64,000 bases of DNA, from IMG/VR virus record IMGVR_UViG_3300042922_001473; one strand, written 5' to 3'. This document shows positions 4,010 to 36,712 of this stretch, one piece after another. This stretch comes from a virus. Taxonomy: Duplodnaviria; Caudoviricetes. Made by a program: the position numbers and the translations under genes. Numbering within the stretch: position 1 is the stretch's first letter; every line of letters starts with the position of its first letter. The notes below the pieces were generated by a model. It was given only the letters and a program-made list of their open reading frames with translations. It did not search any database and had not been told where the DNA came from.

Positions 4010-4771
4010 TTAACTTATTAGCTTTTGATTATAACAATTTTCTAAATCAGTATATGGGATATTGAATTCTATTCTTAAGGAAAACCCATTATAGTCATTC
4101 TTTCTTCCTGAAAATTTATAAATTACTGCATTAGGAAAATCGGACAACAAAAGTTCTTGAAATCTTTTTTTATTATTATCAGTATCTAATAGTTCAGATT
4201 TAAATTGAGCATTATGAATATCCCAACCATCATCTGTCTTTTGTTTTGTTCCATTATTATTTTTAAATACTTTAAAAATTTCTTTATCAGCTAAATGTGC
4301 TTCCTTTTCCATGCTCATATCAGAAGATAAATCTGCAATTATTCCATATGCTGAATAAGATACGGAAGCATAATGCCATCCTTCACTTTCATACCACGCT
4401 CTTAAAATATTTTCATATCTATTTATTGCCCCAGTAACTGCTTCTGGAGAGACTCCTTTTCCAAGCAAATCAATTAATCTTCGTATTTCTATGTTCTTTT
4501 CACGTATTTCAACATGTCTTTTTTCCTTTTCATTTAAAAGAATAGAATCATATCCTACCATTTTTGACAAATCTGAATGAAAGCCCTCATTTAATCCAAG
4601 ATTTGTCCATACATTAGTTTTATTTACAATGTCCCCTTCAACTAAATCTCTAAAAAAGAACATATTTGACAACATTTCATTTATTTTCTTTATAACCTTT
4701 TTCTTATCTTCAAAAGATAATGAAAGAAGCGTATCATCTCTAAATATTTCTAATTTACTCATACTATTCAC
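4010..4771 (-). CDS. hypothetical protein
   Basis: 253-aa ORF; AGGAG RBS; last gene of the hen1 operon. Confidence 0.75.
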   Translation of the reverse strand: MNSMSKLEIFRDDTLLSLSFEDKKKVIKKINEMLSNMFFFRDLVEGDIVNKTNVWTNLGLNEGFHSDLSKMVGYDSILLNEKEKRHVEIREKNIEIRRLIDLLGKGVSPEAVTGAINRYENILRAWYESEGWHYASVSYSAYGIIADLSSDMSMEKEAHLADKEIFKVFKNNNGTKQKTDDGWDIHNAQFKSELLDTDNNKKRFQELLLSDFPNAVIYKFSGRKNDYNGFSLRIEFNIPYTDLENCYNQKLIS

Positions 4772-4920
4772 TCCTAATTCTATAATCTATGGTCAACAAC
4801 TTCATTTGTCATACATAAAATAGCAAGTCATGCCACGTTTAAAACCTTTCGCCATTTGTTAAAGCGTTTTAAAGCCTCTAAGCAATGAAGTAATTCGCTA
4901 TAATGTAATGACTTTTTTGT
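4760..4920. repeat. degenerate direct repeat of pnkp 3' end + RBS + next start (other copy 5614-5780)
   Basis: ctataatctatggtcaacaacttcatttgtcatacataaaatag is identical in both copies; the rest diverges by indels and substitutions. Confidence 0.9.
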
Positions 4921-4929
4921 TTAAAATCA

Positions 4930-5625
4930 TTAATTTGTTCCTTCATTTTCAACACTTGTTTGACAACTAATTAATGTTGCCTGAATAGAGTCTATAACAC
5001 TACAAATCGAATATTTAAGAAGAAAGTATAAATTACTATATTCAGGATATTTGTCTTTTGCTTTTCTGATAAGTGGTAAAATATATTCGTAAGTTTCATC
5101 AATATATGATTGTAATTTCTCATTACTAAATACACCTGCCATTGAAGATACGTTATGACATCTATCAATACATTTTACTATAATTACTCTCTTATCATCT
5201 AACATTGAATTATAGTATCGTTTTTTTGCTTCTTCTTTTGTTTCTCCATCTAAAACTTCAAATGTAAGTTTTTTAACCCCAAGTTTAATATCATCATTAA
5301 CAGGAAAGTCACTTATAGGCGTATTGCAATCCTCTGCCACATCATGAAGCATAATCATTGCAATTATTGAGTCATCTTTTATGCCCATTGATACAGCATA
5401 AGATGCCATAGTTAATGGATGTATAAAATATGGTGTTCCATCTTTTCTTTTTTGGTCTTTATGCTTATCTCTTGCATATGAAAGAGCTTTTAAAGTTTCT
5501 GTCATACCTGCACCCATTGCAAAACCTTTATTATAAGTATAAAGTTTATAAACATCAAATAATTTATTTCCCATATGTTCCAATTCTACTCTTTTTTTAA
5601 TTGCATTTGTTGTCATATTATTCAC
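4930..5625 (-). CDS. SpoT/Mesh1-like HD-domain hydrolase (small alarmone hydrolase-like)
   Basis: RKDGTPYFIHP, LHDVAED and KCIDRCHN motifs. Confidence 0.85.
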   Translation of the reverse strand: MNNMTTNAIKKRVELEHMGNKLFDVYKLYTYNKGFAMGAGMTETLKALSYARDKHKDQKRKDGTPYFIHPLTMASYAVSMGIKDDSIIAMIMLHDVAEDCNTPISDFPVNDDIKLGVKKLTFEVLDGETKEEAKKRYYNSMLDDKRVIIVKCIDRCHNVSSMAGVFSNEKLQSYIDETYEYILPLIRKAKDKYPEYSNLYFLLKYSICSVIDSIQATLISCQTSVENEGTN

Positions 5626-5633
5626 TCCTCACT

Positions 5634-6872
5634 CTATAATCTATGGTCAACAACTTCATTTGTCATACATAAAATAGTAAGTATATACTCATGCCACGTT
5701 TGAAAATCTTCACCATTTGAAAATCGTTTTAAAGCCTCTACGCCAAGAAGCAATTCCCTATAATGTAATGACCTTTTTCTGCTTAAGCTTCTATTTTTTA
5801 ATTTTGCTATTACTGTAGGGTTGTCATAGTTAATTCCATATATAATCCTTAAATAATCCTTACCCCTTACTTTCATCATAGGAAGGATTAATTCACCCTG
5901 GTCATTATGTTCGAGAAAATATTCTGTCTTTAATATAAATCCCTCATACCCTTTAGAAGTTAATTCATCCCAAAATTTTATTGAATTACTTATGCTTTCT
6001 TCTTTGGTAAGGTCTATAAGCACATATGGTGTTTTAATAAATAAGTTATCTTCATTTTCAGCAAACATATTAAAGTGATTTAAGTGCCATTCATGCTCTT
6101 TGTCAAAAAATGTTTTTCCTTCATGTGCTAATAAATGAAAAGGTGCAATTTTTATATTTTCAATATTTGTATCCCAGCAATAGTTCTCTAATTGTTGTTT
6201 ATATTTATTTATGTTTGTAAGATTATTTTCTACTTCTTTAAGCATTTCTTCTTTAATTATAGGAGTATCTTTTAAGTTTTCATATAATTTAGTGTTTAAA
6301 GCTAATGCACTATCAAGTACAGGTAGATATTGATTAAAAAGTAATCCTTCACCTTTAGCATTCCATGGAAGAATTTCAGCGTCTATTATTACAAACCCAG
6401 TATCAAACCTATTAAAATAATCAATACTATTTAAAATAGCTTTAATCCTTAATGATATAGTTTCATTTTCTTTTTCATTGAAGAATTTCTTGCCTGTTCT
6501 TGAATAGATAATTACTTCTTCTTGTTGGTTAGTAAACTCTATTGCTTTTTCTTTATCTTTAAAAACAATAATAGTGCTTCTGCTTCCCATATGTTTTAAT
6601 TCAGCAATTAATCTTTTAGCTCCAAGAGATTTATATTCTTCAATTGCCTCTATAGGATGTTCAAGAAAATCTATATTTTTAGAAGTTCTGCATGGGCTAA
6701 TTGTTGGTGGAATATATGGTAATACATTCGTAGGCATTAACCTAAAACTTATTTCATCAAGTGCTGATTGCACATTTTTAGGGTGTATATTTATTTCTCT
6801 ATTATCAACTGCTATGTTAAACCCATTTATATATTTAGCTATATCAACAGCTTTAAATCTATTATTTAACAT
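5634..6872 (-). CDS. Pnkp-type RNA ligase (adenylyltransferase) domain only
   Basis: PPTISP, motif I ELKHMGSR, DAEILPW, APFHLLA, EGFILK, KVRGKDYLRIIYG and C-terminal VDHRL; no kinase or phosphatase domains. Confidence 0.9.
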   Translation of the reverse strand: MLNNRFKAVDIAKYINGFNIAVDNREINIHPKNVQSALDEISFRLMPTNVLPYIPPTISPCRTSKNIDFLEHPIEAIEEYKSLGAKRLIAELKHMGSRSTIIVFKDKEKAIEFTNQQEEVIIYSRTGKKFFNEKENETISLRIKAILNSIDYFNRFDTGFVIIDAEILPWNAKGEGLLFNQYLPVLDSALALNTKLYENLKDTPIIKEEMLKEVENNLTNINKYKQQLENYCWDTNIENIKIAPFHLLAHEGKTFFDKEHEWHLNHFNMFAENEDNLFIKTPYVLIDLTKEESISNSIKFWDELTSKGYEGFILKTEYFLEHNDQGELILPMMKVRGKDYLRIIYGINYDNPTVIAKLKNRSLSRKRSLHYRELLLGVEALKRFSNGEDFQTWHEYILTILCMTNEVVDHRL

Positions 6873-6898
6873 TATTTATCCTCCAAATACCTGATATT

Positions 6899-8443
6899 TT
6901 ATATATTTAACTTTGTAAATACTGCCATCATAGTCGGTTGTATATCATCAATAACCTTTCCGAAAGAAGAAACCTTATAGTCATATCCATAAGTTTTACT
7001 AATATTTTCACAGAAACTCATGAATTCATTTTTAGTAAATTCAAATCTATGGTCATAATGTCTTAACCTATTAGAACTATTAAAGAATTTGTTAAATTCT
7101 ATATTTGGTGTTGAAATTATTAAGTTCTTTGGTTCAAGATACATTACATTGTCAATAATTCCTGGTATTCTTTCAAGTTCATTATGCTCAATTACTTCAC
7201 AAAGAACTATTGTATCAAATCCCTTTAATCTTGAATCTCTATAATACAGAGAGCTTTGCAATAGTGTTATGTTGTTAAATTTATTACCCCTAAATCTATT
7301 CTTAGCTTTATAGATTATATCAGCATTAGAATCAACACCTGTAATTTCTAAATTTTCATATACTAATTTATCAATCAAATTTCCTTCGCCACAACCAAAA
7401 TCCAGAACTTTTTTGCATTTTGTTTCTAAAATTGCTTCTTTTACCTTAATTAATCTTAAAGTATTTAACTTTAATCCATTTTCTCCATATCCTTTATCTA
7501 CAACTTCTTCTATTTCTATCTCGTTATTAATTTGATTTATTTGTTTATTTTTCTCCTCTATTTCATTTAATAGCTCTGTTGCATAAGTAGAATATGACAA
7601 ATATCTTTGAGTAATTACTTTTCTCATTGAATGAGTATCAAGCCAGCCTTCAGTATATCTTTTAAATTTTTCTAAATCCTGTTTTTCTGGTTTAAAATGC
7701 CTGAAATTATCTATTGCGGTAATAGTTACAATGAGTTCTCTTAATATATCTCTCACCTTTCCTGTTTTCTCTAATTTGATAAAACAAATTTCTTTTCTTC
7801 TTGAAGTAAAAGAAACAGGTTCATTAAATTCTTCTATCGCAACTTTATACCCAAGTTCTTCATACATCTTTATTATATTTTCATTAGTTAGTTTTGGTTT
7901 AAATGGTCCTACTTCTAATTGAATATCATACTCATTTTCATAGATGTCGCCTTCTTTATTCAATGAAGTGTTTAATACATTCATTATTTCTTTTTGAAAT
8001 ACCGAAGTAGCAAGATACTCTTTTTCGTTTACATATCCATTGAAATCTTTAGCAAATGCTAATGTATCTGGTAATGAGTACAAAACTGCCTCAACCTCAG
8101 TTTCAGTATATTTTTTATAAAAGAAAAATGTATCAATTATCTCTCCTACTTTTTTTCTTATTAATTCACCATTTGACGTGATATATTTTACCTGCGTGTT
8201 CTCATTTATTACTTCAAGTTTTTCATTAATAACTCTATCTTTTTTTAATAATTTAATTAAATCCTTTGATAATGTCTTTATATTTAATGAGACCTCTCCA
8301 TTTTTTAATAAGTCTTTTATTTTATAATCTACATCTACAGCTACAGCTCTTTCACTATTCACAAATACTTTGTTAGGATTTTTACCATATACGTAACTTA
8401 ATAAATTCGCATTATTACCCTTTGCGTTTATCTTTAAAAACAT
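6899..8443 (-). CDS. hen1: Hen1 RNA 3'-terminal 2'-O-methyltransferase
   Basis: N-terminal GKNP ligase-activating region; VLDFGCGEG, EVIEH, STPNIEFN, RHYDHRFEFT; adjacent to Pnkp ligase. Confidence 0.9.
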   Translation of the reverse strand: MFLKINAKGNNANLLSYVYGKNPNKVFVNSERAVAVDVDYKIKDLLKNGEVSLNIKTLSKDLIKLLKKDRVINEKLEVINENTQVKYITSNGELIRKKVGEIIDTFFFYKKYTETEVEAVLYSLPDTLAFAKDFNGYVNEKEYLATSVFQKEIMNVLNTSLNKEGDIYENEYDIQLEVGPFKPKLTNENIIKMYEELGYKVAIEEFNEPVSFTSRRKEICFIKLEKTGKVRDILRELIVTITAIDNFRHFKPEKQDLEKFKRYTEGWLDTHSMRKVITQRYLSYSTYATELLNEIEEKNKQINQINNEIEIEEVVDKGYGENGLKLNTLRLIKVKEAILETKCKKVLDFGCGEGNLIDKLVYENLEITGVDSNADIIYKAKNRFRGNKFNNITLLQSSLYYRDSRLKGFDTIVLCEVIEHNELERIPGIIDNVMYLEPKNLIISTPNIEFNKFFNSSNRLRHYDHRFEFTKNEFMSFCENISKTYGYDYKVSSFGKVIDDIQPTMMAVFTKLNI

Positions 8444-8480
8444 AATTTCCTCCTGTTTATTGTCATTATAATAATCTTTG

Positions 8481-8494
8481 TTGACTTTAGTCTG
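8481..8494. promoter_or_regulatory. palindromic operator variant TTGACTTTAGTCTG upstream of hen1
   Basis: Matches TTGAC-N4-GTCAA copies at 13402, 14609, 34071, 34610. Confidence 0.55.
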
Positions 8495-8552
8495 TTTCGA
8501 TATTATAATAATTTTATAGACTATTAAAATTTATGTAACTTCTATTAATTCC

Positions 8553-8581
8553 ATTATATCATAATTATTTCTTTTTGTCAA
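8553..8581 (-). promoter_or_regulatory. consensus sigmaA promoter for hen1 operon
   Basis: Minus strand TTGACA-N17-TATAAT with TG extension. Confidence 0.8.
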
Positions 8582-8682
8582 TTTTACTTTACATTAGAGT
8601 AATATAAATATCTGATAATTACATATAATATATAAATTTATATATTAGGTTCATAACAAATGACAATTAGAAGGAGTATTTT

Positions 8683-8880
8683 ATGAAATCAATAGTGGAA
8701 AAATTTAAAAAGAAATCAACTCAAAGCAAAACTAATAATGAAGAATCAGTTAGACATTTCTCAATGAAGGAATTAGAAGAACTTGAATACATTATGGAAT
8801 GTAAAGAAGATGGATTCATTGTACCAGAAAAGCCTGAGAAAAAGAGTTTGTTTTCAAAAATAAGGACATTGTTTAATTAA
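8683..8880 (+). CDS. small protein with amphipathic C-terminal helix
   Basis: Ends KKSLFSKIRTLFN; AAGGAG RBS. Confidence 0.65.
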   Translation: MKSIVEKFKKKSTQSKTNNEESVRHFSMKELEELEYIMECKEDGFIVPEKPEKKSLFSKIRTLFN

Positions 8881-8909
8881 AAAATTTACGAATACAAAAG
8901 GAGATAATC

Positions 8910-9686
8910 ATGGAAAACAATCAAAAGGAACTAATCATGGAAAAAAATAAAAAGGAACTAACACCTACAGAGTACTTTGATAATGTAAAAGGTAGAAAGC
9001 AACAAATAACAGATGAAGAATTGTTATCAATTTATGATAATTGTTTAACTCTTGCTAAAAAGTATACAACTACTGGACAAGTATCAGGACTTCGTAAATT
9101 AATGTTTCATTTAGAGACTATTGAAAAAGAAAGAAACATAGTTAAGATGGGTATTAATACTTTTGTCTACAGAGACGATATTGAAGAGTATATTGATAAT
9201 ATTGCCAATAATGCTGTTAAAATTATTGAGTTAGAGAATTACGAAAGAGAAATTCCTGATGAAATAGTTGAAATAATTGAAAAGGTCAAAGATGAATTTA
9301 CTCAGCTTTATGTTCTTTATACAGATTATACTGGTAAGGAAGAAAAAAGAGTTGAGAAAATAAGAAGGGATAAAGACCCTATACTATTCGGCACATTCAG
9401 AGATGAAAAAAGCAGAACATTAATTGATAGGTTTTATTTCTTAGGCGATTGGATTGACGAATACTGTGATTTGACGCTTGATAAAATGGTGACTGAAATT
9501 AAGAAGAAAAAAGGTAAAGATGTTACCAGAACAATCAGCACTCCAACAACAATTGAGGAATTAAAACAACAATTAGAAACTTTGGAAAGAAAAAATGGGA
9601 AAAATGATGTTTTCGTTATTAATAATAACAGTCCTAAAAAAACAGGTTTCTTTAGCAAAATAAGAACATTTTTAGGAGATAAATAA
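8910..9686 (+). CDS. conserved phage-type hypothetical protein
   Basis: DPILFG...FYFLGDWIDEYCDLTL motif; C-terminal KKTGFFSKIRTFLG. Confidence 0.8.
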   Translation: MENNQKELIMEKNKKELTPTEYFDNVKGRKQQITDEELLSIYDNCLTLAKKYTTTGQVSGLRKLMFHLETIEKERNIVKMGINTFVYRDDIEEYIDNIANNAVKIIELENYEREIPDEIVEIIEKVKDEFTQLYVLYTDYTGKEEKRVEKIRRDKDPILFGTFRDEKSRTLIDRFYFLGDWIDEYCDLTLDKMVTEIKKKKGKDVTRTISTPTTIEELKQQLETLERKNGKNDVFVINNNSPKKTGFFSKIRTFLGDK

Positions 9687-9734
9687 TGGATGATATTATG
9701 GAAATAAAAATAGGACAAATAAGAAGTATATAGG

Positions 9735-9953
9735 ATGGGACATATGAAAAAATTAATTATTCCGTTGTTAATTGCGATTATATTTGTATGTATCATTGGT
9801 TTTTTTGCTTTAGCTGAACAAACATATTTTATGAAAGAACAAATGCAAAGTGAAATTAATGTACAACAAGAAGAAATAAATGAACTCAAATCAACTATTG
9901 AACAACAAGACAAAATAATTGAAGAATTTAAGGGAATTATTATTAGATATTAA
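9735..9953 (+). CDS. small membrane-anchored coiled-coil protein
   Basis: N-terminal hydrophobic helix followed by heptad pattern. Confidence 0.6.
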   Translation: MGHMKKLIIPLLIAIIFVCIIGFFALAEQTYFMKEQMQSEINVQQEEINELKSTIEQQDKIIEEFKGIIIRY

Positions 9954-10038
9954 TACTTTTAGTTTTAGTAAGACTTCACTTCCTCTTAAGTTAATCATAT
10001 TAAAAATAGAGGAAATATAAGGTTTTAGGAGGTAAATA

Positions 10039-10422
10039 GTGAAAAGCAATATTGACTTAACAGAAAGTAGACACTTTCAAAAAGATACAAGAGATTCAAA
10101 AATAGCTTCATTAAATAAGATTTCTTCTGATTTTTTAGTTAATAGAATTAAACTTATTCAATTAAACAAGACATTCCCATGGGATTTTAAAAGAAAAAAA
10201 CTAAGTGAGGAAGCTAATATTGAATTATTTCTTACTGGTAGCAAAGAAGACCGTTTATACAAGAAAAACTGTATTGATTATGACATTGGTACTCAGTGCG
10301 AATGTTGTGGCTTTGATTTTAGAAAAAAACTATGGTTAAATGATAGCTCAAGACTATGCCCAAAATGTATGAATTATCTTGAAAATAGTATGAGAAAAAG
10401 TAACAGTATATTTAATATATAA
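10039..10422 (+). CDS. hypothetical Zn-finger protein
   Basis: CECCG...LCPKC; AGGAGG RBS. Confidence 0.7.
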   Translation: MKSNIDLTESRHFQKDTRDSKIASLNKISSDFLVNRIKLIQLNKTFPWDFKRKKLSEEANIELFLTGSKEDRLYKKNCIDYDIGTQCECCGFDFRKKLWLNDSSRLCPKCMNYLENSMRKSNSIFNI

Positions 10423-10441
10423 GAATAGTGAGGATATTGAA

Positions 10442-10609
10442 ATGGAAGAAAAAAGAGAAAATACTGTATTGGATTTGTTAATGCTTTTGCATAACACAAA
10501 ATTAGAAGCACCAATTAAGGTTAGATTAAATGATAAGCTTTATGATATTTCGGCAGTAAGTAAAAAAAATATGATGGTATTTATTGATGCTGAAGAAATT
10601 AAAAAATAA
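10442..10609 (+). CDS. small hypothetical protein (55 aa, not in ORF track)
   Basis: GAGGA RBS, MEEKRENTVLDLL...EEIKK*. Confidence 0.55.
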   Translation: MEEKRENTVLDLLMLLHNTKLEAPIKVRLNDKLYDISAVSKKNMMVFIDAEEIKK

Positions 10610-10687
10610 CAAAAAGCAGGTAATTTCTTACTGTTGAGTATTGATAAAAAAGTGCTATAAAATAGAATTTATGGAAGGATTGATATT

Positions 10688-10966
10688 ATGTGTGGAATAA
10701 TTAAGGAAGTTACGATAAAAATTGATTGGACTAAATATGTATCAGAAACGATTGATACTCAAAATTATTTAAATAACATTGTGGAATTTTTTAATTCTAA
10801 TGATGTTAAAGAAGTTATATTTTTTAACATAGGTACTTATTCTAAATTAGTTTCATTAATTACTGATTTAAAGTCATTAGCAGAAAAGGGAAATGTTTAT
10901 GTAGAAAAGGATTCTGTAATATACAGACCATCTCTTAACCCCCTATCTTTTAAAACATGGTTTTAA
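10688..10966 (+). CDS. hypothetical protein
   Basis: 92-aa ORF with GAAGGA RBS. Confidence 0.55.
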   Translation: MCGIIKEVTIKIDWTKYVSETIDTQNYLNNIVEFFNSNDVKEVIFFNIGTYSKLVSLITDLKSLAEKGNVYVEKDSVIYRPSLNPLSFKTWF

Positions 10967-11076: not shown

Positions 11077-12078
11077 TTAATGTTTTGTATTAAAATCGTT
11101 TTTATTAAACCTTCCAGGATAAGCTGTATTAATAGCTTCATAAGGAGAATAATTATATACTTTGGCAAGCATACCAGACAAACCATTATTCATAAAAGTT
11201 TGTTTTCTTAGTTTTAAGATAACTTCTTCATTAGACCATTTAAGTTTACATTCTATTAACCATTTAGTTGCATTTATAGCATTTCCTTTTGTCCAATATT
11301 TTTTGGGAACAGAACATAATTCCCAAGGCTTAAATAAGTTTGGATAAGCAGTATTTAAACAATCATATGTAGAACCTTTAAATAGCTTATCAAGCATACC
11401 AACCAATCCATACTTTTCAAATGTTTCTTTTTTTATTTCAATATTTTTATTACTAAACCAATCAAGCTTCACTTCTAAAAGCCATTTTGTAGAATTAATC
11501 CCATTTTCCATTGTCCAATATTTTAACGGAACATTGCCTAATTCCCAAGGTTCAAACATTTTAGGATATGCGGTATTTATCGCTTGATATGGAGAGCTAT
11601 CAAATAAAAGTTGCAACATACCCCCTAATTTATATTTGACAAATATACTAACAGTAGGTTTAATTTTTTCATTAGAATTAAACCAATTAAGTTTTTCTTC
11701 CATAAGCCATTTAGTTGCCTCTATTCCATTCTCTAAAATCCAATAATTCTTAGGAACGACTGATACTTCCCATATTTTAAATCTACCTGGATATGCTGTA
11801 TTTATAGCTTCATATAAGGAATTATTATAAACATATTTAATCATTTCTTCTAATCCATATTTATTAAAAAGACTAAATTTTGTGTTGTTAATAATTTCTT
11901 CATCTGACCAATTTAATATATCTTCATATAAAGCTTTTATTATTTTGACAGAATGTTCTTTACTTTTTTTCTTAATCCAAAAGGATTTAGATATTCTGTG
12001 TAACTTTAAATATTTAATTTCTTTAAAAAATTCAGTTATAGGTAATTCATATATATCTTCATTAAAGATATTCTTCAT
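11077..12078 (-). CDS. DUF4046-like repeat protein
   Basis: Internal ~72-aa repeats YxAINTAYP..F.PWEL..VP..YW...NGIxATKWL. Confidence 0.8.
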   Translation of the reverse strand: MKNIFNEDIYELPITEFFKEIKYLKLHRISKSFWIKKKSKEHSVKIIKALYEDILNWSDEEIINNTKFSLFNKYGLEEMIKYVYNNSLYEAINTAYPGRFKIWEVSVVPKNYWILENGIEATKWLMEEKLNWFNSNEKIKPTVSIFVKYKLGGMLQLLFDSSPYQAINTAYPKMFEPWELGNVPLKYWTMENGINSTKWLLEVKLDWFSNKNIEIKKETFEKYGLVGMLDKLFKGSTYDCLNTAYPNLFKPWELCSVPKKYWTKGNAINATKWLIECKLKWSNEEVILKLRKQTFMNNGLSGMLAKVYNYSPYEAINTAYPGRFNKNDFNTKH

Positions 12079-12193
12079 GTTACCCTCCTAATTTACCATT
12101 ATATATATAATAGTACAATCTGACAAAAAAAGCAAGGTTTCCCCTGCTATTTCACTATTTTAATATTCTATAGTATTAAACTATATAGAATCG

Positions 12194-13357
12194 CTATAAT
12201 CTTTCGGTAGTAAGTGCTATCCCATTGATTATCACACTGTCATCTATTTCGATTAATAAACATTTTCTACCACGCTTATCCAATACTTGCTTTATTGAAC
12301 CTAAATCTTTAGGACTAATTGAAATATTCGCTTTATCACTATTAATATTAATTGACTTTGAATGATAGTTTGGAATTATATTTGAAGCTTTAAATTTGTA
12401 ACTACTTCCTGCTATATCATTAAATATTTTAGATAAGTCTTCGGTATCTTTTATTCCACTTTCAACTAACACTTTTTCTATATCTGGGATTCCTAACTTT
12501 AATGGTTCGCTGTTGTCATTAGCGTCATTGTATTCCATTTTGTTATTTATTTGTTCATATACTTGTTGCATTGTATCAGGTGACATTTTCTCTTTCACTA
12601 ATGAACTTAAAATGTTTTCAAATTTTTCTTTTTCTTCTCTTGCTGTAAGAGTGTTTACACAGGATAGTATGTTTTCCACAAAATTCTCATTCTTTCTATC
12701 AGCTTTCGAGGTATAATAAATGACCTTATTTGCGTCTGCAGAGTTATCATTAAATGTTGGATACATAAATCCGTCTAAAGGTGAACTAATATTTATAATT
12801 GTGTCAAATCCAGAAGTTGCTTTAAATGTTTGAGTTTTGTGGTCAAATTTTAATGCTTTTTTAGCCATATCAATTTTATTTAGACTGCACATTATGAAAT
12901 CAAATTTATATACATTATCATCATTTCCAGATTCATCGTCTTTATTGTATTCTATTGGTTTTAGATATTCGGCTTTAATAAAATTAATAACAATATCTGT
13001 TTCCCAGTTAAAATTACCAGCTATTTTTTCAACTACTTTATCTGCATTTGCTTTAAAATCGTCAGATTTTTGAGTTTTTAATATATTATGTAGCATAGTT
13101 TGGTTATCATTGTTTCCGCTATTAATAAATTCAAGTTCGAAAACCTTCGAATCAAGTGTACCTGTTAATAGCTTCTTAAAATTCTTATAGTAAAGCTCCT
13201 GCTCTGTTTCCCCTAATCTATCAAACATATTGTTTTCAGTATGTACTATTTCCTTATTGTCACATTTAAGATATACATTATAGATTTGTTTAATATTTAA
13301 TAGTAAGTTATCAGGTTTAAATTCTTTCTTTATAGCAGATATGTCTTTTTTATTCAT
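12194..13357 (-). CDS. DUF4317 family protein
   Basis: MNKKDISAIKKEFK start, GFMYPTFND and GRKCLLIEID motifs. Confidence 0.85.
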   Translation of the reverse strand: MNKKDISAIKKEFKPDNLLLNIKQIYNVYLKCDNKEIVHTENNMFDRLGETEQELYYKNFKKLLTGTLDSKVFELEFINSGNNDNQTMLHNILKTQKSDDFKANADKVVEKIAGNFNWETDIVINFIKAEYLKPIEYNKDDESGNDDNVYKFDFIMCSLNKIDMAKKALKFDHKTQTFKATSGFDTIINISSPLDGFMYPTFNDNSADANKVIYYTSKADRKNENFVENILSCVNTLTAREEKEKFENILSSLVKEKMSPDTMQQVYEQINNKMEYNDANDNSEPLKLGIPDIEKVLVESGIKDTEDLSKIFNDIAGSSYKFKASNIIPNYHSKSININSDKANISISPKDLGSIKQVLDKRGRKCLLIEIDDSVIINGIALTTERL

Positions 13358-17483: not shown

Positions 17484-18479
17484 CTATGCGATTTTTTTAC
17501 TCTTAATTAAGTAATCATTATTTATCACTTTCATTGATAAGTTAGAACATAATATTTCGCTATAACAAGGTATCATTGGAATTATAACTATGCCCTCTCT
17601 TTGATGATTTGAGCTTTCGTAAACACCTTTAGCAAGTTCTAACAATTCTTCTAATGTGAATTCAAATGTAACATTCAGCTTCATAGGCACATGCTTTAAC
17701 CCATACTTTTTACAGAAATCAATTAATTCTTCAGGGCTTAGATATGACTGAGTATCATTATTAAATATTCTAAACACGAATAATTCATTTTCTTTTAATC
17801 CTAACTTATTTTTCATTATCCCAGGACCTGCTATTTCTCCTTGTATAGAATAATTCCCTGCCTTTTTCAATATTTCAATAATATTATATTTCTTTTCCAT
17901 TTTCCAGTAAACACTATTTTCGTCTTTCAATAAGCTATGTGTATGACTGCATACATGGTAATCATCATTATTCTTTATGTAAGAAGCTGAATACCCGTCT
18001 ATTTTTGTTGTAATTGCTACTTTTTTACCCATAAATTCATCTATAAGTTTTGGGAATGATTGTACTCTTTCTTCACCTGTTTTACTTACTATAGTTGGGT
18101 GATAACCTCTTGATACGCCTATCATTTCTTCTGGAAATTCATCCTCATATTTTTCAACACCAAGCAACTCAGTTACATCTTTTCCTTCAAAAATCTCTGT
18201 ACTTGTTGGAAGAATATCGGTTGTCCAGCATAACCCTTGTGATAACTGCCCACGAAGTCTAAGAGTTTTTAATCTGTAATTATTGATTGCCATATATTCA
18301 AATTCAGGTATTTTAGGTAATATACTATCTATTTCAAAGTATATACATAAATCCCCTTCTTTAAATTGTCCTTTCTTTACTACACATTTCCAACCTAATA
18401 TTGTAGCTATATCTAATGTATCAGCATTAAAATGTGGTACAAGTTTTGTAATTTTCTGAATAGATGCTAACTTTCGCAT
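17484..18479 (-). CDS. ATP-dependent RNA ligase, DRB0094/Rnl5 family
   Basis: MRKLASIQKI OB-like N-terminus, YFEIDS, LRGQLSQGL, KIDG, QGEIAGPGI, REGIV, KVINNDYL. Confidence 0.9.
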   Translation of the reverse strand: MRKLASIQKITKLVPHFNADTLDIATILGWKCVVKKGQFKEGDLCIYFEIDSILPKIPEFEYMAINNYRLKTLRLRGQLSQGLCWTTDILPTSTEIFEGKDVTELLGVEKYEDEFPEEMIGVSRGYHPTIVSKTGEERVQSFPKLIDEFMGKKVAITTKIDGYSASYIKNNDDYHVCSHTHSLLKDENSVYWKMEKKYNIIEILKKAGNYSIQGEIAGPGIMKNKLGLKENELFVFRIFNNDTQSYLSPEELIDFCKKYGLKHVPMKLNVTFEFTLEELLELAKGVYESSNHQREGIVIIPMIPCYSEILCSNLSMKVINNDYLIKSKKIA

Positions 18480-25959: not shown

Positions 25960-26307
25960 AATTAAATAATTTCTCCTATTTTTTATTTTATATATTCAGT
26001 TATGTGATAATTTTGCTATTCATTTAAAAATTCGATTACACAAAATATCAAATATATTATGAAAGCAACTACTACATCTCCCCAAATTACCTTAAAAAGT
26101 AATTTTAAAACCTCTAATATTTCATAAAATGTCATTTTTATATTTCAGTTTTTCTCCTGTTCAAATTGTTATATTTAAATAGCTCCTATTTATTATTTTT
26201 ATTATTATATGTATAATACTGAGATTAATAAAGTATCAAAACAATAATTAAGTGAATACCCCCTCTACTTATTAAACCTTAGTAGTTATGAAGGTATTCA
26301 CTTATGA

Positions 26308-27513
26308 TTAAAGTTCATAATTTGAAATTGTATTTCTTGAAGCTCCATAACTTAAATATCCTTCATTAAAACCTACACTATTAAATGTATCAGTAATAAA
26401 TTGTTTAATAGACGAAATTTTTTCTTTTGAATTAGTTATGTATTTTGCTTCATTATTTATCTGGTCTAAGCAAGTTATCGCAAGTTTTGCATTAAAGTTT
26501 AGACTTTTTGCATATTTTAAGTCATTTCGTATGGTTTTTCCAAGTAAATCTATATCAAGTATTCCAAATCTTAATGTTCCTTGATATGGATTTGGCACAT
26601 TTGTCAAATCTATAATCTTTTCATATGGTTTATTTCTTGTTTCAGTCGGGAATGTCCCTACACCATGTCTTGTAAGGTACGCTCTTGTAACATAAATAAT
26701 TTCTATATCTTCTTTTTCAAATCCTATTCTATTTATGAGTTCTACTACATTTTTAATGCCTGTGTTTGAACGGGTGACATATGGGAAATACTCATGTCCC
26801 TGGTCGAGCATTAATCCCTGTGCTCCCTCAAATATAATATTATCAAATTCTTGTAGGATTCCAATGTCTCTCACTTTAATTTTATCCAACATATTGTTAA
26901 TGTCATATATATAATTCTCTATAATTCCTTCGTTATTAAGTAAAGAACAATATCTTTCAGGTACAGAAGATACTCCTAAGTTATAAAATCTATTCATATT
27001 ATATTGTTCTTTGATTATAGCTAACTTTTCTCTTAGTAATTGTTCATTAAATAAATCATTAACAGTTATTTTGAATTTTTCATCTTCTAAACTTCTTGTA
27101 ATCGTCTCATTAAAACCAAGACCACAACTTCCATGTTTTAAATTTCCTCTAAACGCTTCAACAGCTTGATTAATAATCATATCAAAAGGGGTAGTTACAA
27201 TACAATTTTTATCAACATAAACAATAGGGTTTACTCCTAAACTATTTAGGCTATTAATTTCTTTTTCAAAAGTCATTGGATTAACAACGAAGTATTCGCT
27301 AAGATAAGTAGGTTTGCCAGTAAAAGAACCTGCACCAAAATGCCCAAACACATGTCTCTTACCATCAGGAGTTTCTATTGTGTGACCTGCTTGTGCTCCC
27401 CCATTAAAGCGAACAACTATAGCATTTTCTATTCCTGCTGATAAATAATCAGTCATTAACCCCTTTCCTTCATCTCCAAAATTGCTTCCTATGACTACTT
27501 TTATATTTTTCAT
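26308..27513 (-). CDS. divergent adenylosuccinate-synthetase-like (PurA fold) enzyme
   Basis: GDEGKG, RFNGGAQAGHT, FEGAQGLMLD, PYVTRSNT, YLTRHG; Asp-binding TTGR loop and TKLD motif replaced. Confidence 0.85.
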   Translation of the reverse strand: MKNIKVVIGSNFGDEGKGLMTDYLSAGIENAIVVRFNGGAQAGHTIETPDGKRHVFGHFGAGSFTGKPTYLSEYFVVNPMTFEKEINSLNSLGVNPIVYVDKNCIVTTPFDMIINQAVEAFRGNLKHGSCGLGFNETITRSLEDEKFKITVNDLFNEQLLREKLAIIKEQYNMNRFYNLGVSSVPERYCSLLNNEGIIENYIYDINNMLDKIKVRDIGILQEFDNIIFEGAQGLMLDQGHEYFPYVTRSNTGIKNVVELINRIGFEKEDIEIIYVTRAYLTRHGVGTFPTETRNKPYEKIIDLTNVPNPYQGTLRFGILDIDLLGKTIRNDLKYAKSLNFNAKLAITCLDQINNEAKYITNSKEKISSIKQFITDTFNSVGFNEGYLSYGASRNTISNYEL

Positions 27514-27553
27514 AATTAACCCCCTCTTTTTCTCTTAATAGAAGGAAGTTAGG

Positions 27554-28477
27554 TTAAAACCTAACTATACCTCCTGCAGTATCTATCTTACTTAAAGAAC
27601 TAACCGCTTTTTCCACAACCAATGAAGTTGAACCATCCCAGCTCTTAATAACTTTGTCTGTGTCAGCTCCATTTTCTATTTGTAGTGTAGAAACAATGAC
27701 CTCTGCTAACTTAGTATGGTCAGATAGTCTTATAGCTCTTTGACCTAATAATTCTGTCCAAGCATTTACCACTTGCTCTCCTCTACTTCTAAAATAATTA
27801 CCATTTTCGACCATAATATGATAAACTTCATATTGCCTTGATACCATTGTTAATAATTCTTGTACTTCAATCTTATCAAATTGTGGTTTAATTCCAAATA
27901 CTCTTTCTATATCACAACCTCTTAAATAAGGTGTCGGAAGTTCATCTCCAATAGTAAATAAGTATCCTTTCTTTCCACGCTTTTCAAAACTATCAATTCT
28001 TGTATACATTGAAGCAAAGTACCAAGCTAAAGCATATGATTCATAATTATTTCCTCCACCACCCTTTTCAAGGTAAATTTTAGATAATTGTTCGGCAATA
28101 CGAATATCTGCTTCAAATTGTGTTGCTTGAAGTGGTGCTCTATCTCCTTCCTCTACATCTCCAATACCTAAAAACATGATATGTGGGTCTGTAATCGGTT
28201 TTCTGTTATATACTTCTGTTGCAAGTGTTTTTAATCCATCCCTTGCCATTACATCAAGTACTGAACCCATTGAACCCGTAACATCAAGTGCTACAATAAG
28301 TGGACTTGATAATGGGTTATCTACTGAATCACATGATTCTCTCATTTTAATATCTTTCGGGTTTAAATCTTTATCAATATTTTTTGCAGTATAAATTTCT
28401 TCAACAGTAGCCTTTCCTATTATATTTTTAGTTGCATACCTTACCCAGTCGCTTTCTTTCCATCTTCCTTCACCCAT
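27554..28477 (-). CDS. vWA-domain protein
   Basis: MIDAS-like DVTGSMG, GGGGNNYESY, IGDE. Confidence 0.85.
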   Translation of the reverse strand: MGEGRWKESDWVRYATKNIIGKATVEEIYTAKNIDKDLNPKDIKMRESCDSVDNPLSSPLIVALDVTGSMGSVLDVMARDGLKTLATEVYNRKPITDPHIMFLGIGDVEEGDRAPLQATQFEADIRIAEQLSKIYLEKGGGGNNYESYALAWYFASMYTRIDSFEKRGKKGYLFTIGDELPTPYLRGCDIERVFGIKPQFDKIEVQELLTMVSRQYEVYHIMVENGNYFRSRGEQVVNAWTELLGQRAIRLSDHTKLAEVIVSTLQIENGADTDKVIKSWDGSTSLVVEKAVSSLSKIDTAGGIVRF

Positions 28478-28483
28478 AATTTA

Positions 28484-29527
28484 TTACCTCCTATTATTTT
28501 TATTATATAATTCTTCTTTATTAACAATCATTTCAATAAATTTTCTTTCTCCAAAGCTTTCTTCTAAGACTTTTCCCCATTTTGAATATTCTTCTAATGC
28601 ACTTTTTGATGATGAAGTACCTCTTAACCAATTCGTTAATGGAAGGGGGATATCATTCATTTGTACTAATTTTGTTCCATTCTTATCCCCTAAAAGCTCT
28701 CTTCCAATCATTCTAACAGATTCTAAATCTGTCAATAAGCTACCATTCTTCTTGTTTTTTATATGTGGAGGCATAATAGTGTAGATTTTTTCTGGCACTC
28801 CTATCATTTTCTCCCCTTGATTTACTGAATACCACCACCCACCTAAAAGAACTCCACTATGATATTTTGGTGATATGAAATATGTTTCTAATGATATTGC
28901 ATTATGAGATATTCCTGAATAATCAAAATAGCATAAAAGATTGTATAAACTACTTAGTATCCATGCCACATGTCGAGGTGAAACTCTTTCATCATAATAA
29001 TTAAAAATATCTTTTAAAAGGAATACATCTGGTGTTTTATCTATAATTAATCCAATTTTATAATCAATTGTTTCAAAAGTCGCTTTTATTTTAGGAAGAT
29101 ACCTCGATATTTCTTTTTCCATATTCTCATTTGCATACTTAAAATCATTGATTGTTCTTTTAGCATTTTCAACTAAATCACTATTTTTCTTGTCTACTAT
29201 AAAAGCTACTGAAGCATCACCTACATACATTGTTCCTAATTCAAAAGAATGAGATTTGTGATACTTTATTTCATTTACATTACCATTTACTCCTGATAGC
29301 TTTATAACTCCTGGTTTTTTATATGTGCCAGTCCTAATCATCTCAACACATTCGTTATAAAGTTTATTAACATTCGCCATTACTTCATTTGATTCTTTTG
29401 AATTGCTATTTAAATCAGGATGCCACTGTTTAGCTAATTGTGAATACTTCAGTTTAATTTCATTTATATTGTCAGAAAATAACTCACCAGCTTCTTTAAT
29501 ATTTAATATTTCACTTGCAGATAACAT
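28484..29527 (-). CDS. J-domain fused to kinase-like (probably pseudokinase) domain
   Basis: LAKQWHPD; HVAWILSSL...GISHNAISLETY...LLGGWWY in place of HRD and DFG. Confidence 0.75.
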   Translation of the reverse strand: MLSASEILNIKEAGELFSDNINEIKLKYSQLAKQWHPDLNSNSKESNEVMANVNKLYNECVEMIRTGTYKKPGVIKLSGVNGNVNEIKYHKSHSFELGTMYVGDASVAFIVDKKNSDLVENAKRTINDFKYANENMEKEISRYLPKIKATFETIDYKIGLIIDKTPDVFLLKDIFNYYDERVSPRHVAWILSSLYNLLCYFDYSGISHNAISLETYFISPKYHSGVLLGGWWYSVNQGEKMIGVPEKIYTIMPPHIKNKKNGSLLTDLESVRMIGRELLGDKNGTKLVQMNDIPLPLTNWLRGTSSSKSALEEYSKWGKVLEESFGERKFIEMIVNKEELYNKNNRR

Positions 29528-29549
29528 CTCACTACCTCCTTTCCTGAAA

Positions 29550-29618
29550 TTTGATAATATCGTTTTGTTATTATCTATTTGATATTATCATTATAATACT
29601 AATTATATTATATGTCAA
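29550..29618 (-). promoter_or_regulatory. operon promoter (TTGACA-N17-TATAAT, 29590-29618) with three 12-bp direct repeats at 14-bp period
   Basis: tttgataatatc 29550, tttgttattatc 29564, tttgatattatc 29578. Confidence 0.7.
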
Positions 29619-30009: not shown

Positions 30010-30372
30010 TTGGAGGAAACAAAAATGACAGGAAAAATGATGAATTTTGATGGTGTTCCATTATTTATTCCAAACGATATAAGTATCCAAACAACAGAAT
30101 TTTATATTAGTTACAATGACAGGGATACATCTTTGTATGGTGATGTCACTACTGCTTTAGTGCAAAATAATCCAGTAAAGTTTTTAATATTGAATGGTAA
30201 TCATTCTAAAGAATATAAGGAGATAATATCAAAAGGTGGTGGTTACTCAGATTGTTTGGAATATTTTAAAAACAACCTTGATAAAAAGTCCAAGTTCAGT
30301 GAAAACTGGGATGAAACAATAATAGTTGAAGAAGATGGAAGTCTTCATGTTGTTAAGGATTTCAACAATTAG
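30010..30372 (+). CDS. hypothetical protein (likely start 30025)
   Basis: FYISYN..D...YG..TTALV motif; GGAGG RBS before ATG. Confidence 0.7.
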   Translation: MEETKMTGKMMNFDGVPLFIPNDISIQTTEFYISYNDRDTSLYGDVTTALVQNNPVKFLILNGNHSKEYKEIISKGGGYSDCLEYFKNNLDKKSKFSENWDETIIVEEDGSLHVVKDFNN

Positions 30373-34175: not shown

Positions 34176-34547
34176 TTAATTTGAAAATTTGCTTAAAGCA
34201 GTTGCAACAACATCTGATTTAAAAGGTTTTACAATAAATCCTTTAGCTCCTGCAGTTACAGATTCTAAGACTAAAGATTCTTGCCCCATCGCACTAACCA
34301 TTACTACTTTTGCATTCGGATTTATTTTTAAAATATTTTTCAATGCTTCTATACCACCCATTTCTGGCATTGTAATATCCATTGTTATAATATCAGGAAT
34401 ATAGGTTTTATACTTTTCAATGGCTTCAACTCCATTATAAGCGTTACACACTACTTCGTATCCATTAGTTTTTAATACGCCTCCTAATACTGTATGCATA
34501 AATTTTGAATCATCAACTATCATTACTCTTTTCATTTTTATTAACAC
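34176..34547 (-). CDS. stand-alone CheY-like response regulator
   Basis: IVDDS, MDITMPEMGG, VSAMGQ, FIVKPF. Confidence 0.9.
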   Translation of the reverse strand: MLIKMKRVMIVDDSKFMHTVLGGVLKTNGYEVVCNAYNGVEAIEKYKTYIPDIITMDITMPEMGGIEALKNILKINPNAKVVMVSAMGQESLVLESVTAGAKGFIVKPFKSDVVATALSKFSN

Positions 34548-34616
34548 TCTCCATTTTATGATTTTATTCTTGATTTCTATAATTGTTTATATTATAATAG
34601 TCCATATCATAGACTA

Positions 34617-34955
34617 TTGTCAAATACTTATTTGTTCAATATAAGTTTATTAGAAGATATAAATAGTAAATATCAAGGAGCTTCAATGTTAAGAAAAAAA
34701 ATTAATAAAGAAATATTTGAAAATAAAAGAAATCATATACCTCATGGAAAATATTGTTACGATGCAAATACATCATGTCCATTTTGGGAACTTGACACAT
34801 CAAAACAACTCTGTTCTAATGGATTTTGTCATTTATTAAAAAAGGGTGATTGGGAAGAAAACTTAAATGTAAATAATAATACTAAAGGAAACCTCTGGGA
34901 TTGTATAAAAGAGTGTAATATTAATACTGAACATTTACTACTCCATTCCAATTAA
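34617..34955 (+). CDS. Cys-rich hypothetical protein (likely start 34686)
   Basis: IPHGKYCY...CPFW...GFC...LWDCIKECNIN; AAGGAG RBS before ATG 34686. Confidence 0.65.
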   Translation: MSNTYLFNISLLEDINSKYQGASMLRKKINKEIFENKRNHIPHGKYCYDANTSCPFWELDTSKQLCSNGFCHLLKKGDWEENLNVNNNTKGNLWDCIKECNINTEHLLLHSN

Positions 34956-35044
34956 TTAAATACCTAATTTCATATGCATTTTAAAATATTGAAATAAGGC
35001 TAATATAAAAACTCTCTATATAGAGAGTTTTTTATTTTACAATA

Positions 35045-36712
35045 TTAATTTTCAATTATTAAGTTTCCATCAGAGTCATAAATACTTATATTAAAATCTC
35101 TTGGAACTACAGTAACATTTATATCAATTGAGCTTGCTCCATCTAATGTTGTTAGTGTTACTACAGAAGTTCCTTCTTTTAATCCAACTATATTGTATTT
35201 AGAATTTCTTGCTTGTAATGCTTTTACTACTTTTTTATCTGATACAGTTGTTTTTATTTTCTTAGAAAGAGTTTCTTCTGGTATTACTACTGCGGAAAAT
35301 TCATATCTATCCCCTACTTTAATAGTTATGTTTGTTTCGGGAACAATAATTCCGTCAACAGTACTTATTGTACTTACTAAGCAAGAAGCTGTATATCCAC
35401 CATCTTCTGTTGTTACAGTTATTACTGCATCCCCAGCACTTACTGCATACACTTTACCTTTAATTACTTTTACTACTTTACTGTTGCTTGATGACCATTT
35501 AACATTTTTATTAACTGCATTTTCTGGGTAGACTGTAGCTGTTAGCATTTCATTTTCTCCAACTTTAAGTTCAATCATATCTTTATTTAAAGATACACCA
35601 GTAACAGTTGAATCAACATTAACTACAAAATCTATTTTTGCTTCATCAGAGTCCTGAGTTACAGTAGCTGTAATAGTTGCAGTTCCGTTTGAAATTGCTT
35701 TTATTTTTCCGTTTCTAATAGTAGCTATTGATTTATCAGAAGTTGTCCATTTGATTTTATAATCACTTAAAGATTTTGAATTACTTAAATCATCGGTAAC
35801 AATAATTTCAAGTTCTTCACCAACATTTAAGTCTGCAGAGCTTATTTTGTTATCATTTTTATCAAGAATAAATAGTTTTTCTACATCTGATACAACTACA
35901 ATAGTTGCTTGACCAGTAAAACCACCGTCTCTTGACTTGAAATGAACAACTGTTTCACCCTCATTTAATCCTGTAACAGTACCTTCTTTATCAATTCTAA
36001 TTAAGCTTTTTTCTGCAATTTCATAAAGTATTGTTTGGTCAAAAGCATTTTCTGGATAAACTTTTACATCAAGTGTAAATTTTTTTCCAACTTCTATAAT
36101 GACATTATCTGTATTAACCTTTAACCCAGTGACCATTGGTGTAACAGTTACCTCACATATAGCTTTGTATCCACCATCAACAGTTGTTACTGTAATTATT
36201 GCTTTTCCTTCTTTCACTCCTGTTACTACACCGTTAACAACCTTAGCTACAGCAGGATTATCAGTAGACCATGTTACATCTTTTTTAAATGCATCTGTCG
36301 GCAGTATATTTGCTGTTAATTTAACTTTTTCTCCGACATTTATGTCAAGATTTGTTTTATCAAGTTCTACTCCAGTAACTGTTGAATGTACATTTACTGT
36401 AAATTTTACCAAAGTTTCATTATCTTTTATTTTTGCAGTAATTATTGTTTGTCCTTCTGAAACACCTATAAGTTTTTTAGATGCATCTATTCTTGCAATT
36501 TTATTATTATCTGAAGTAAATTGAGTAACAAGAGTATCTATCTCTTCATTAATGTCAGAAGCAACAATAACTGTTTCAAGTGAAATTTTGTCTCCAACAA
36601 GTATATCTAAGCTACCCATATTTTCTGCATTAACCGCTAATGGATTAAATACAAATAGACAGCAAAGAATAATCAATGTCATTGACATTTTTAACAAATT
36701 ATTATTTTTCAT
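35045..36712 (-). CDS. secreted Ig-like (Big_2) repeat protein
   Basis: Signal peptide; about six V.WS(S/T).N..VA.V..G.V.....G.A.IT repeats. Confidence 0.9.
   Translation of the reverse strand: MKNNNLLKMSMTLIILCCLFVFNPLAVNAENMGSLDILVGDKISLETVIVASDINEEIDTLVTQFTSDNNKIARIDASKKLIGVSEGQTIITAKIKDNETLVKFTVNVHSTVTGVELDKTNLDINVGEKVKLTANILPTDAFKKDVTWSTDNPAVAKVVNGVVTGVKEGKAIITVTTVDGGYKAICEVTVTPMVTGLKVNTDNVIIEVGKKFTLDVKVYPENAFDQTILYEIAEKSLIRIDKEGTVTGLNEGETVVHFKSRDGGFTGQATIVVVSDVEKLFILDKNDNKISSADLNVGEELEIIVTDDLSNSKSLSDYKIKWTTSDKSIATIRNGKIKAISNGTATITATVTQDSDEAKIDFVVNVDSTVTGVSLNKDMIELKVGENEMLTATVYPENAVNKNVKWSSSNSKVVKVIKGKVYAVSAGDAVITVTTEDGGYTASCLVSTISTVDGIIVPETNITIKVGDRYEFSAVVIPEETLSKKIKTTVSDKKVVKALQARNSKYNIVGLKEGTSVVTLTTLDGASSIDINVTVVPRDFNISIYDSDGNLIIEN

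Follow-up and report, generated by a model that had tools for sequence, protein, structure and literature searches.

A vWA and PurA-like gene module shared by large phages and bacteria is frequently placed beside nrtR and may act during NAD+ depletion

We analysed a three-gene operon at positions 26308-29618 (minus strand) of a 64,000-nucleotide stretch of viral DNA (IMG/VR record IMGVR_UViG_3300042922_001473; Caudoviricetes), the whole of which is referred to below as the window. In order of transcription, the operon encodes a J-domain/pseudokinase protein (P0003), a von Willebrand factor A (vWA) protein (P0002) and a protein related to adenylosuccinate synthetase (PurA), designated P0001. 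Our preferred reading, which is tentative and to which we assign a probability of roughly 45%, is that these genes form a nucleotide-ligase module that is derepressed by adenosine diphosphate (ADP)-ribose and serves under conditions of nicotinamide adenine dinucleotide (NAD+) depletion, carried in this instance on a phage-like element. The evidence that carries this reading consists of the frequent placement of the module beside the gene for the ADP-ribose sensor NrtR, a matching operator at the promoter of the window copy, and a set of residue changes by which the PurA-like protein departs from PurA and from its phage paralog PurZ.

Conservation of the module and its linkage to NrtR

The module is a widespread cassette common to large phages and many bacteria. 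Among the 99 loci examined were copies from phages and megaplasmids, together with the best 80 of the 523 stretches that matched among 185,579 species-representative genomes. The PurA-like gene stood directly after the vWA gene in 97 of the 99 loci, both exceptions being truncated contigs, and the J-pseudokinase gene lay upstream of this pair in 81; an nrtR homolog was adjacent, either just upstream or divergently oriented, in 52. When the neighbouring open reading frames (ORFs) of 89 of the loci (L011-L099) were clustered all-against-all, the widely recurrent families were four in number (PurA-like, vWA, J-pseudokinase and NrtR), and no fifth was recovered. A sequence-only reading of this DNA had pointed to similar, uncharacterised neighbourhoods in other bacteria, and the survey shows that the three genes are conserved together; the literature turned up only genome announcements and PurZ papers, and no published characterisation of the module was found.

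Approximately 220 phage genomes carry the vWA/PurA-like pair, most of them belonging to Bixzunavirus myophages of Mycobacterium smegmatis. By tblastn, the two genes were adjacent in ~200 Bixzunavirus mycobacteriophages and also in Vibrio jumbo phages (phiKT1024 group), Rhizobium jumbo phages (RHph_TM30 group) and a gut phage scaffold. Further copies were present on nine IMG/VR contigs and, by protein search, on 21 megaplasmids; a search of plasmid DNA with the operon gave no match. The lineages represented were Bacillota, Competibacteraceae, Massilia, Pyrinomonadaceae, relatives of Geobacter, Melainabacteria and one metagenome-assembled genome (MAG) of the Thermoplasmatales, and the module occurred in unrelated neighbourhoods, beside transposases and on megaplasmids. 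Across the 80 loci from species-representative genomes, the vWA proteins were 49-72% identical to P0002, which argues for strong constraint combined with horizontal spread of the module. A PurA-like protein with 30% identity to P0001 is also encoded at 345350-346270 of LR756501.1, an uncultured phage of 735,411 bp that ranks among the largest phage genomes known. On plasmid pAtS4e of Allorhizobium ampelinum (L102), the genes that directly follow the module (7408-10918) code for an AAA ATPase and for proteins of the DUF5682 and DUF4132 families, a set that has a MoxR/vWA-style look and may be a separate system.

Because the frequent neighbour of the module is the ADP-ribose sensor NrtR, we tie the module to NAD+ depletion, and it probably acts while NAD+ is being destroyed. 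The NUDIX and NrtR_WHD domains of the neighbouring regulator were confirmed by Pfam in all five loci tested (Competibacteraceae, Pyrinomonadaceae, Lachnospiraceae, Anaeromicropila and Geomonas). Genes of NAD+ and ADP-ribose metabolism accompany some copies. The gene order in the Clostridium beijerinckii group is nrtR, prs-like, pncA, NAMPT and then the trio, with a microbial-type PARG gene between NAMPT and the trio in C. beijerinckii HUN142 (L035:4067-4897, plus strand), and a MAG of the Lachnospiraceae has a gene for a DUF4291 protein in the interval from nrtR to the trio (L088:4378-4947, plus strand). On a 182-kb IMG/VR viral contig (L012), prs-like and NAMPT-like genes (11458-12845, plus strand) lie ~3 kb downstream of the vWA/PurA-like pair. 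ADP-ribose is known to free NrtR from DNA in vitro (PMC2330246).

All three genes of the window copy lie on the minus strand. P0003 (347 amino acids, aa) is encoded at 28484-29527 and was identified from its ORF, a Pfam match, AlphaFold2 (AF2) modelling with Foldseek, and alignment; P0002 (307 aa) is encoded at 27554-28477, and P0001 (401 aa) at 26308-27513. The intergenic gaps measure 6 nt between P0003 and P0002 and 40 nt between P0002 and P0001. A sigma-70-type promoter, TTGACA-17-TATAAT, precedes the genes at 29590-29618 (minus strand) and matches the consensus at 12 of 12 positions. A terminator-like hairpin follows them at 26236-26304 (minus strand; stem 26304-26249, then a U-rich tail), with a folding energy of -22 kcal/mol and a z-score of -5.1, and none of 200 shuffled sequences folded equally well. 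Because the promoter stands upstream and the hairpin with its U-rich tail downstream, the interval 26308-29618 is one real transcription unit, and the earlier description of a tight three-gene operon with its own consensus promoter holds for the ORFs, the gaps and the perfect promoter alike. A second hairpin of 8 bp with a T-rich run, detected by a consensus scan only, extends over the vWA stop codon (27547-27566, minus strand) and may be an internal attenuator or terminator that damps read-through into the PurA-like gene.

Directly after the -10 box, an operator array of three 14-bp units, GATAWTAWCAAAW, occupies 29549-29590 (minus strand) and is a candidate NrtR-type site by comparison with nrtR-linked copies. 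Within the array lies a 25-bp palindrome, TGTTATTATC-N5-GATATTATCA (29566-29590), which is unique in the window and which was found, with one change, upstream of nrtR in three Lachnospiraceae loci (L086, L088 and L096). Resembling sites were located upstream of nrtR or of the trio in Clostridium and relatives (L007, L034, L043 and L048), and the same tandem units were present at the trio promoter of five Bacillota copies with no adjacent nrtR (L005, L022, L023, L027 and L029). A pattern derived from other genomes only, TGATAATAACAAANNGATAATAACA, had one match in the window with 1 mismatch and another, overlapping match with 3 mismatches, for an expectation by chance of 0.00, and both matches fell at the operon promoter. 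We relied on the 25-mer matches because the simple core TATC-N5-GATA, which with one mismatch occurs at 0.97/kb overall versus 4.2/kb upstream, is too common in AT-rich DNA to be used alone. From the operator match, a host NrtR-type repressor is predicted to keep the operon off until ADP-ribose rises. A further operator unit (GATAATATCAAAA, 1 mismatch) is situated at 30222-30234 (plus strand), ~630 bp upstream of the operon and in or near an ORF at 30010-30372.

Kept core and altered pockets of the PurA-like protein, and its two partners

P0001 was assigned by Pfam, PHROG and PDB matches, alignment and a tree. It matched the Pfam family Adenylsucc_synt (PF00709) with 177.7 bits (E = 4e-52; curated cut-off 27), and in the PDB it matched PurA structures at 8e-28 and PurZ structures at only ~1e-3. 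Every synthetase motif quoted in the sequence-only reading was found in the protein: GDEGKG (residues 13-18), GGAQAGHT (38-45), HGSCGLGF (127-134), the loop TNVPNPYQGTLR (304-315) and TCLD (347-350). For the comparison of residues, 27 members of the clade were aligned to Escherichia coli PurA, whose numbering is used for the positions compared. D13, E14, K16, H41, Q224, T239, G274 and D333 were retained in 25-27 of the 27 members (D13, K16 and H41 in all 27, and D333, which reads the guanine, in 26), and the C-terminal SxGPxR element was also kept. The clade substitutions, by comparison, were found in 21-27 of the 27 members, with the exception of R143, where there was no consensus. Among the ligands of the inosine monophosphate (IMP) 5'-phosphate, N38 was replaced by Gln (26/27) and T129 by Cys (24/27), and R143 was variable; among the aspartate ligands, T301 was replaced by Gln, R303 was deleted, and R305 gave way to a hydrophobic residue (Leu in 21/27). 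In addition, T300 was replaced by an aromatic residue, V273 by an invariant His and K331 by a near-invariant Cys, and at most one Arg of the aspartate loop, R315, was kept. In PurA itself, R303 touches the IMP 2'-OH and the aspartate substrate alike (PMC8342488). As judged from this alignment, the core for guanosine triphosphate (GTP)-dependent activation of a 6-oxopurine is intact in P0001, and the aspartate and 5'-phosphate pockets have been rebuilt throughout the clade, in keeping with the earlier claim that the substrate loops had diverged. P0001 may activate a purine nucleotide and join it to a non-acidic amine belonging to a small molecule or to a protein; it is only the lost arginines that point to a different amine.

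P0001 is neither housekeeping PurA nor PurZ, as had been proposed from the sequence. It is not the housekeeping enzyme because a separate canonical purA was present in all five module-bearing bacterial genomes examined, scoring 540-640 bits versus 127-178 bits for the module copy; a housekeeping purA identity was rejected on this coexistence in the five genomes and on the changed ligands. In a quick maximum-likelihood tree, the 27 module-linked proteins fell on one side of a branch (Shimodaira-Hasegawa-like approximate likelihood ratio test, SH-aLRT, 88), six housekeeping PurAs grouped together (SH-aLRT 99), and PurZ stood apart on a very long branch. P0001 is not PurZ because Asp13 is kept. 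The position is occupied by Ser in PurZ, as the earlier reading had stated: phiVC8 PurZ reads GSTGKG, and in a survey of 481 phage PF00709 homologs, Ser was found in 100% of the 147 assigned to PurZ/PurZ0, the remainder being uncharacterised there (PMC12884076). Furthermore, no DatZ, MazZ/DUF550 or DpoZ domain was detected by Pfam or PHROG in the ten ORFs within ~7 kb, and none was recurrent in the 89 clustered loci; a PurZ-type Z-genome gene was rejected on account of GDEGKG and of this absence of Z-cluster neighbours.

No Pfam family matched the vWA protein P0002, a look-up in the ESM Atlas led to unnamed clusters only, and among PHROG families it matched phrog_2971; its assignment comes from modelling and alignment. 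The AF2 model, built with 19 homologs, had a mean predicted local distance difference test (pLDDT) score of 84 and a predicted template modelling (pTM) score of 0.87, and Foldseek matched it to integrin I-domains, NorD and the Ku80 vWA domain at a probability of 1.0 (E ~5e-6). Residues of the metal ion-dependent adhesion site (MIDAS) type, D65-V-T67-G-S69, T119 and D178, were invariant in the 19 sequences; the site deviates from DxSxS in having Thr for its first Ser. At the N-terminus the sequence is M-G-x-G-R-W, M1-G2 being invariant, and the N-terminal 45 residues are predicted by the model to be flexible. A complex prediction for the PurA-like and vWA proteins returned a score of 0.00, which counts neither for nor against binding.

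P0003 is, on the evidence of alignment and modelling, a J domain fused to a kinase domain that is predicted to be catalytically dead. The J domain (PF00226) scored 28.8 bits, just above the cut-off of 27.8, and its HPD motif at residues 36-38 was invariant. The model had a pLDDT of 93, its kinase fold matched PKA, PAK4 and MST3 at E values of 1e-8 to 1e-6, and 4wb7, a human fusion in which a J domain is joined to PKAc, was among the top three Foldseek hits. With the catalytic positions placed by sequence alignment and secondary structure, HRD was found to be replaced by SHN (N209) and DFG by LGG (G229), and the beta3 Lys of the N-lobe was not invariant; it is because of the SHN loop, the LGG and the lack of a conserved N-lobe lysine that we call the protein a pseudokinase. 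Host DnaK would be recruited through the J domain. The Bixzunavirus gene annotated as a Ser/Thr kinase is a homolog of P0003. No J-pseudokinase was detected upstream of the pair in Vibrio phage phiKT1024 or Rhizobium phage TM30 (hhalign probability <1%), and because these versions lack it, the core of the module is the vWA and PurA-like pair, of which the J-pseudokinase is a frequent and dispensable third part.

Proposed role and competing explanations

According to the preferred reading, NrtR would repress the module, and accumulated ADP-ribose, a product of NAD+ cleavage, would switch it on. The PurA-like enzyme would then most likely phosphorylate a purine nucleotide on its 6-oxo group at the expense of GTP, after which a non-aspartate amine would displace the phosphate; the nucleotide may differ from IMP at its 5' end. 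The vWA protein would be an obligate partner of the enzyme, for which, by way of its MIDAS, it would be a substrate, a scaffold or a regulator, and the J-pseudokinase would bring DnaK/Hsp70 of the host to the pair. Because the window operon carries a host-type operator, and has no regulator of its own, host NrtR would hold it off until the destruction of NAD+, for instance by an NADase-type defence, releases it. The output might then help the element or the cell to cope with the loss of NAD+ and adenylates, and for a phage it would plausibly counter NADase-type immunity.

Several observations weigh against this proposal. Of the 99 loci, 47 had no nrtR detected beside the module, nor was one detected next to it on any of the nine viral contigs from IMG/VR or in the annotated phage genomes inspected, and the 64-kb window contains no nrtR, NAMPT, prs-like or pncA gene. 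The window operator also departs from GT-N7-AC, the core that most NrtR groups are reported to have (PMC2330246). Neighbour clustering of the 89 loci revealed no adenylosuccinate-lyase-like gene accompanying the module, so that if aspartate were still the substrate, PurB of the host would be needed. Finally, the Vibrio and Rhizobium jumbo phages have no detectable J-pseudokinase, and the proposal leaves the need for the vWA protein unexplained.

An anti-phage defence or conflict system, in which the trio would be an immune module of the host that senses infection and then poisons nucleotide pools or modifies a target, with some phages carrying the genes too, is an unlikely alternative to which we nevertheless give some weight. 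Its attractions are the mobility of the module, which is seen in its unrelated neighbourhoods, the transposases and the megaplasmids, the pairing of a vWA protein with a kinase-like protein, which recalls TerY-P triads, and the fact that control by NrtR would suit a response to NADase activity. However, none of the three proteins matched any PADLOC-DB 2.0 family, the TerY-type families included, at E values up to 0.1; no effector-like domain (nuclease, TIR or pore) is present and the kinase appears catalytically dead; and the pair is carried by the ~220 phage genomes mentioned above, among them the whole Bixzunavirus group. The label of conflict system, which the sequence-only reading had offered as a candidate, is not supported as worded, in view of the lack of PADLOC matches and this abundance in phages.

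Somewhat less probable still is protein nucleotidylation, whereby an activated purine nucleotide would be transferred to the amine of the invariant N-terminal Gly of the vWA protein, or to some other protein amine, with DnaK aiding assembly. The invariant M1-G2 followed by a flexible N-terminal segment, the change of the carboxylate-binding arginines of the aspartate pocket to aromatic or hydrophobic residues, and the adjacency of the vWA and PurA-like genes throughout (97/99) are all consistent with such a reaction. An invariant Met-Gly, however, has other possible causes, such as start context or Met removal. The most specific form of the idea, in which P0001 joins the purine C6 to the Gly2 amine of the vWA protein to give an N6-linked conjugate, only upon an ADP-ribose signal and after maturation by DnaK, is at long odds in our estimation; if true, an N6-linked protein-nucleotide conjugate would be a kind of modification not known so far.

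We regard as very improbable a role in nucleic-acid base modification in the manner of PurZ, in which an unusual purine or deoxypurine nucleotide would be made for the DNA or RNA of the element. The match of P0001 to PHROG 1211 (2e-67), a family annotated after PurZ, is what would be expected of such an enzyme, DNA modification is common in large phages, and RNA-repair genes occur elsewhere in the window. Nevertheless, P0001 keeps Asp13 where all 147 phage PurZ/PurZ0 proteins have Ser, its structural matches are to PurA and hardly to PurZ, the surrounding ten ORFs lack DatZ-, MazZ- and DpoZ-type domains, and bacterial chromosomes carry the same module next to nrtR. An ordinary adenylosuccinate synthetase in an auxiliary role, raising synthesis of adenosine monophosphate during infection or stress, as the GenBank label (adenylosuccinate synthetase) and the intact PF00709 fold, P-loop, Asp13 and His41 might suggest, has equally little to recommend it, since R303, R305, T301, N38, T129 and R143 are replaced clade-wide, canonical PurA coexists in five of five genomes, and purine synthesis offers no role for so strict a pairing with a vWA protein.

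The carrying element and comparison with known systems

The region around the operon has a GC content of ~26%, contains no tRNA genes and is full of small orphan ORFs, and the contig on which an operon protein is recorded measures 534,699 bp. When 24 kb of the window were compared with phage genomes (INPHARED) by megablast, no match was obtained, and the element itself is therefore not in INPHARED. The element has the characteristics of either a very large phage or a megaplasmid from a Clostridium-like host. Elsewhere in the window, an RNA-repair set at 4010-8443 (minus strand) encodes Hen1 (Hen1_L plus methyltransferase, 514 aa), a protein consisting of the Pnkp ligase domain only (PNKP_ligase, 9e-111, 412 aa), an HD_4 protein and an unknown ORF, and a second RNA-repair-type enzyme, an RNA ligase with a PHA02142 OB-fold N-terminal domain, is encoded at 17484-18479 (minus strand). 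A stand-alone response-regulator receiver (123 aa) adjoins a 555-aa protein with four Big_2 domains at 34176-36712 (minus strand), the latter matching structural or tail PHROGs of phages. The region is rich in mobile elements, with transposases at 8910-9686 (plus strand; phrog_10081, 3e-100) and 60156-61673 (plus strand; phrog_506, 1e-38). A full-length DUF4317 protein (5e-98) is encoded at 12194-13357 (minus strand), and a DFP-like protein (CoaBC C-terminal domain) at 57817-58965 (minus strand) beside a methyltransferase.

Comparison with the described NrtR regulon (PMC2330246) reveals a partial correspondence. As in that regulon, an nrtR gene of NUDIX and winged-helix type is adjacent to the module, divergent or co-directional, in somewhat more than half of the loci (52/99), prs-like, pncA and NAMPT genes are sometimes nearby, and a palindromic candidate operator is found at the promoter; the window copy, in contrast, has the candidate operator without nrtR, and this site lacks the GT-N7-AC core. 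An operator match on a module copy without a regulator gene is new here. The same paper lists an nrtR gene divergent from two unknown genes (nrtX-nrtY), an arrangement that the Allorhizobium plasmid pAtS4e resembles. If nrtX-nrtY, which that paper assigns to Proteus mirabilis, Hahella chejuensis and Streptomyces, prove to be the module genes, a function might follow for them.

P0001 resembles PurA (EC 6.3.4.4; E. coli 1ADE/1KJX and Legionella pneumophila 6BS7) in its fold, GDEGKG, Asp13, His41, Gln224, Thr239, Asp333 and SxGPxR. It differs from PurA in the replaced IMP-phosphate and aspartate ligands, the His at V273, the Cys at K331 and its position in a separate clade, as well as in its coexistence with true PurA, its pairing with a vWA protein and its frequent location beside nrtR. 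Like PurZ/PurZ0 (phiVC8 6FM1 and S-2L 7ODX), it belongs to PHROG 1211 and is a PurA paralog carried by phages and probably adapted to a new substrate. In PurZ, however, Ser takes the place of Asp13 (GSTGKG), aspartate is still used, and the companion proteins are DatZ, MazZ and DpoZ, whereas in P0001 Asp13 is retained, the aspartate pocket is lost, and the companions are the vWA protein and the J-pseudokinase. Enzymes of PF00709 were long credited with one job, until PurZ showed that a phage paralog can rewrite DNA chemistry; the module clade is a third and much larger PF00709 clade with rebuilt substrate pockets. For its constant association with a vWA protein and with a dead kinase that would recruit Hsp70, we know of no described counterpart.

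The TerY-P triad consists of a vWA protein, a Ser/Thr kinase and a PP2C phosphatase, and the module is like it in being a mobile three-gene set in which a vWA/MIDAS protein is encoded beside a kinase-fold protein. It is unlike the triad in that it has no phosphatase, its kinase is apparently dead and bears a J domain, its third gene is PurA-like, and it has no PADLOC match; identity with the triad was rejected on the grounds of the missing phosphatase, the dead kinase and the lack of a PADLOC match.

Depletion of NAD+ is a battleground between phage defences (TIR, SIR2 and similar) and counter-measures such as NARP. The NARP pathways are phage NAD+ reconstitution pathways, NARP1 comprising Adps and Namat and NARP2 comprising Nampt and Nmnat. 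Like them, the module is a phage-carried gene set tied to the breakdown products of NAD+, and prs-like and NAMPT genes lie beside it in some bacteria and on one viral contig. Unlike them, it encodes no protein homologous to Adps, Namat, Nampt or Nmnat, and we could propose no NAD-forming reaction for a PurA fold. The reaction of P0001, once known, would probably bring to light a nucleotide metabolite or a protein modification that is new.

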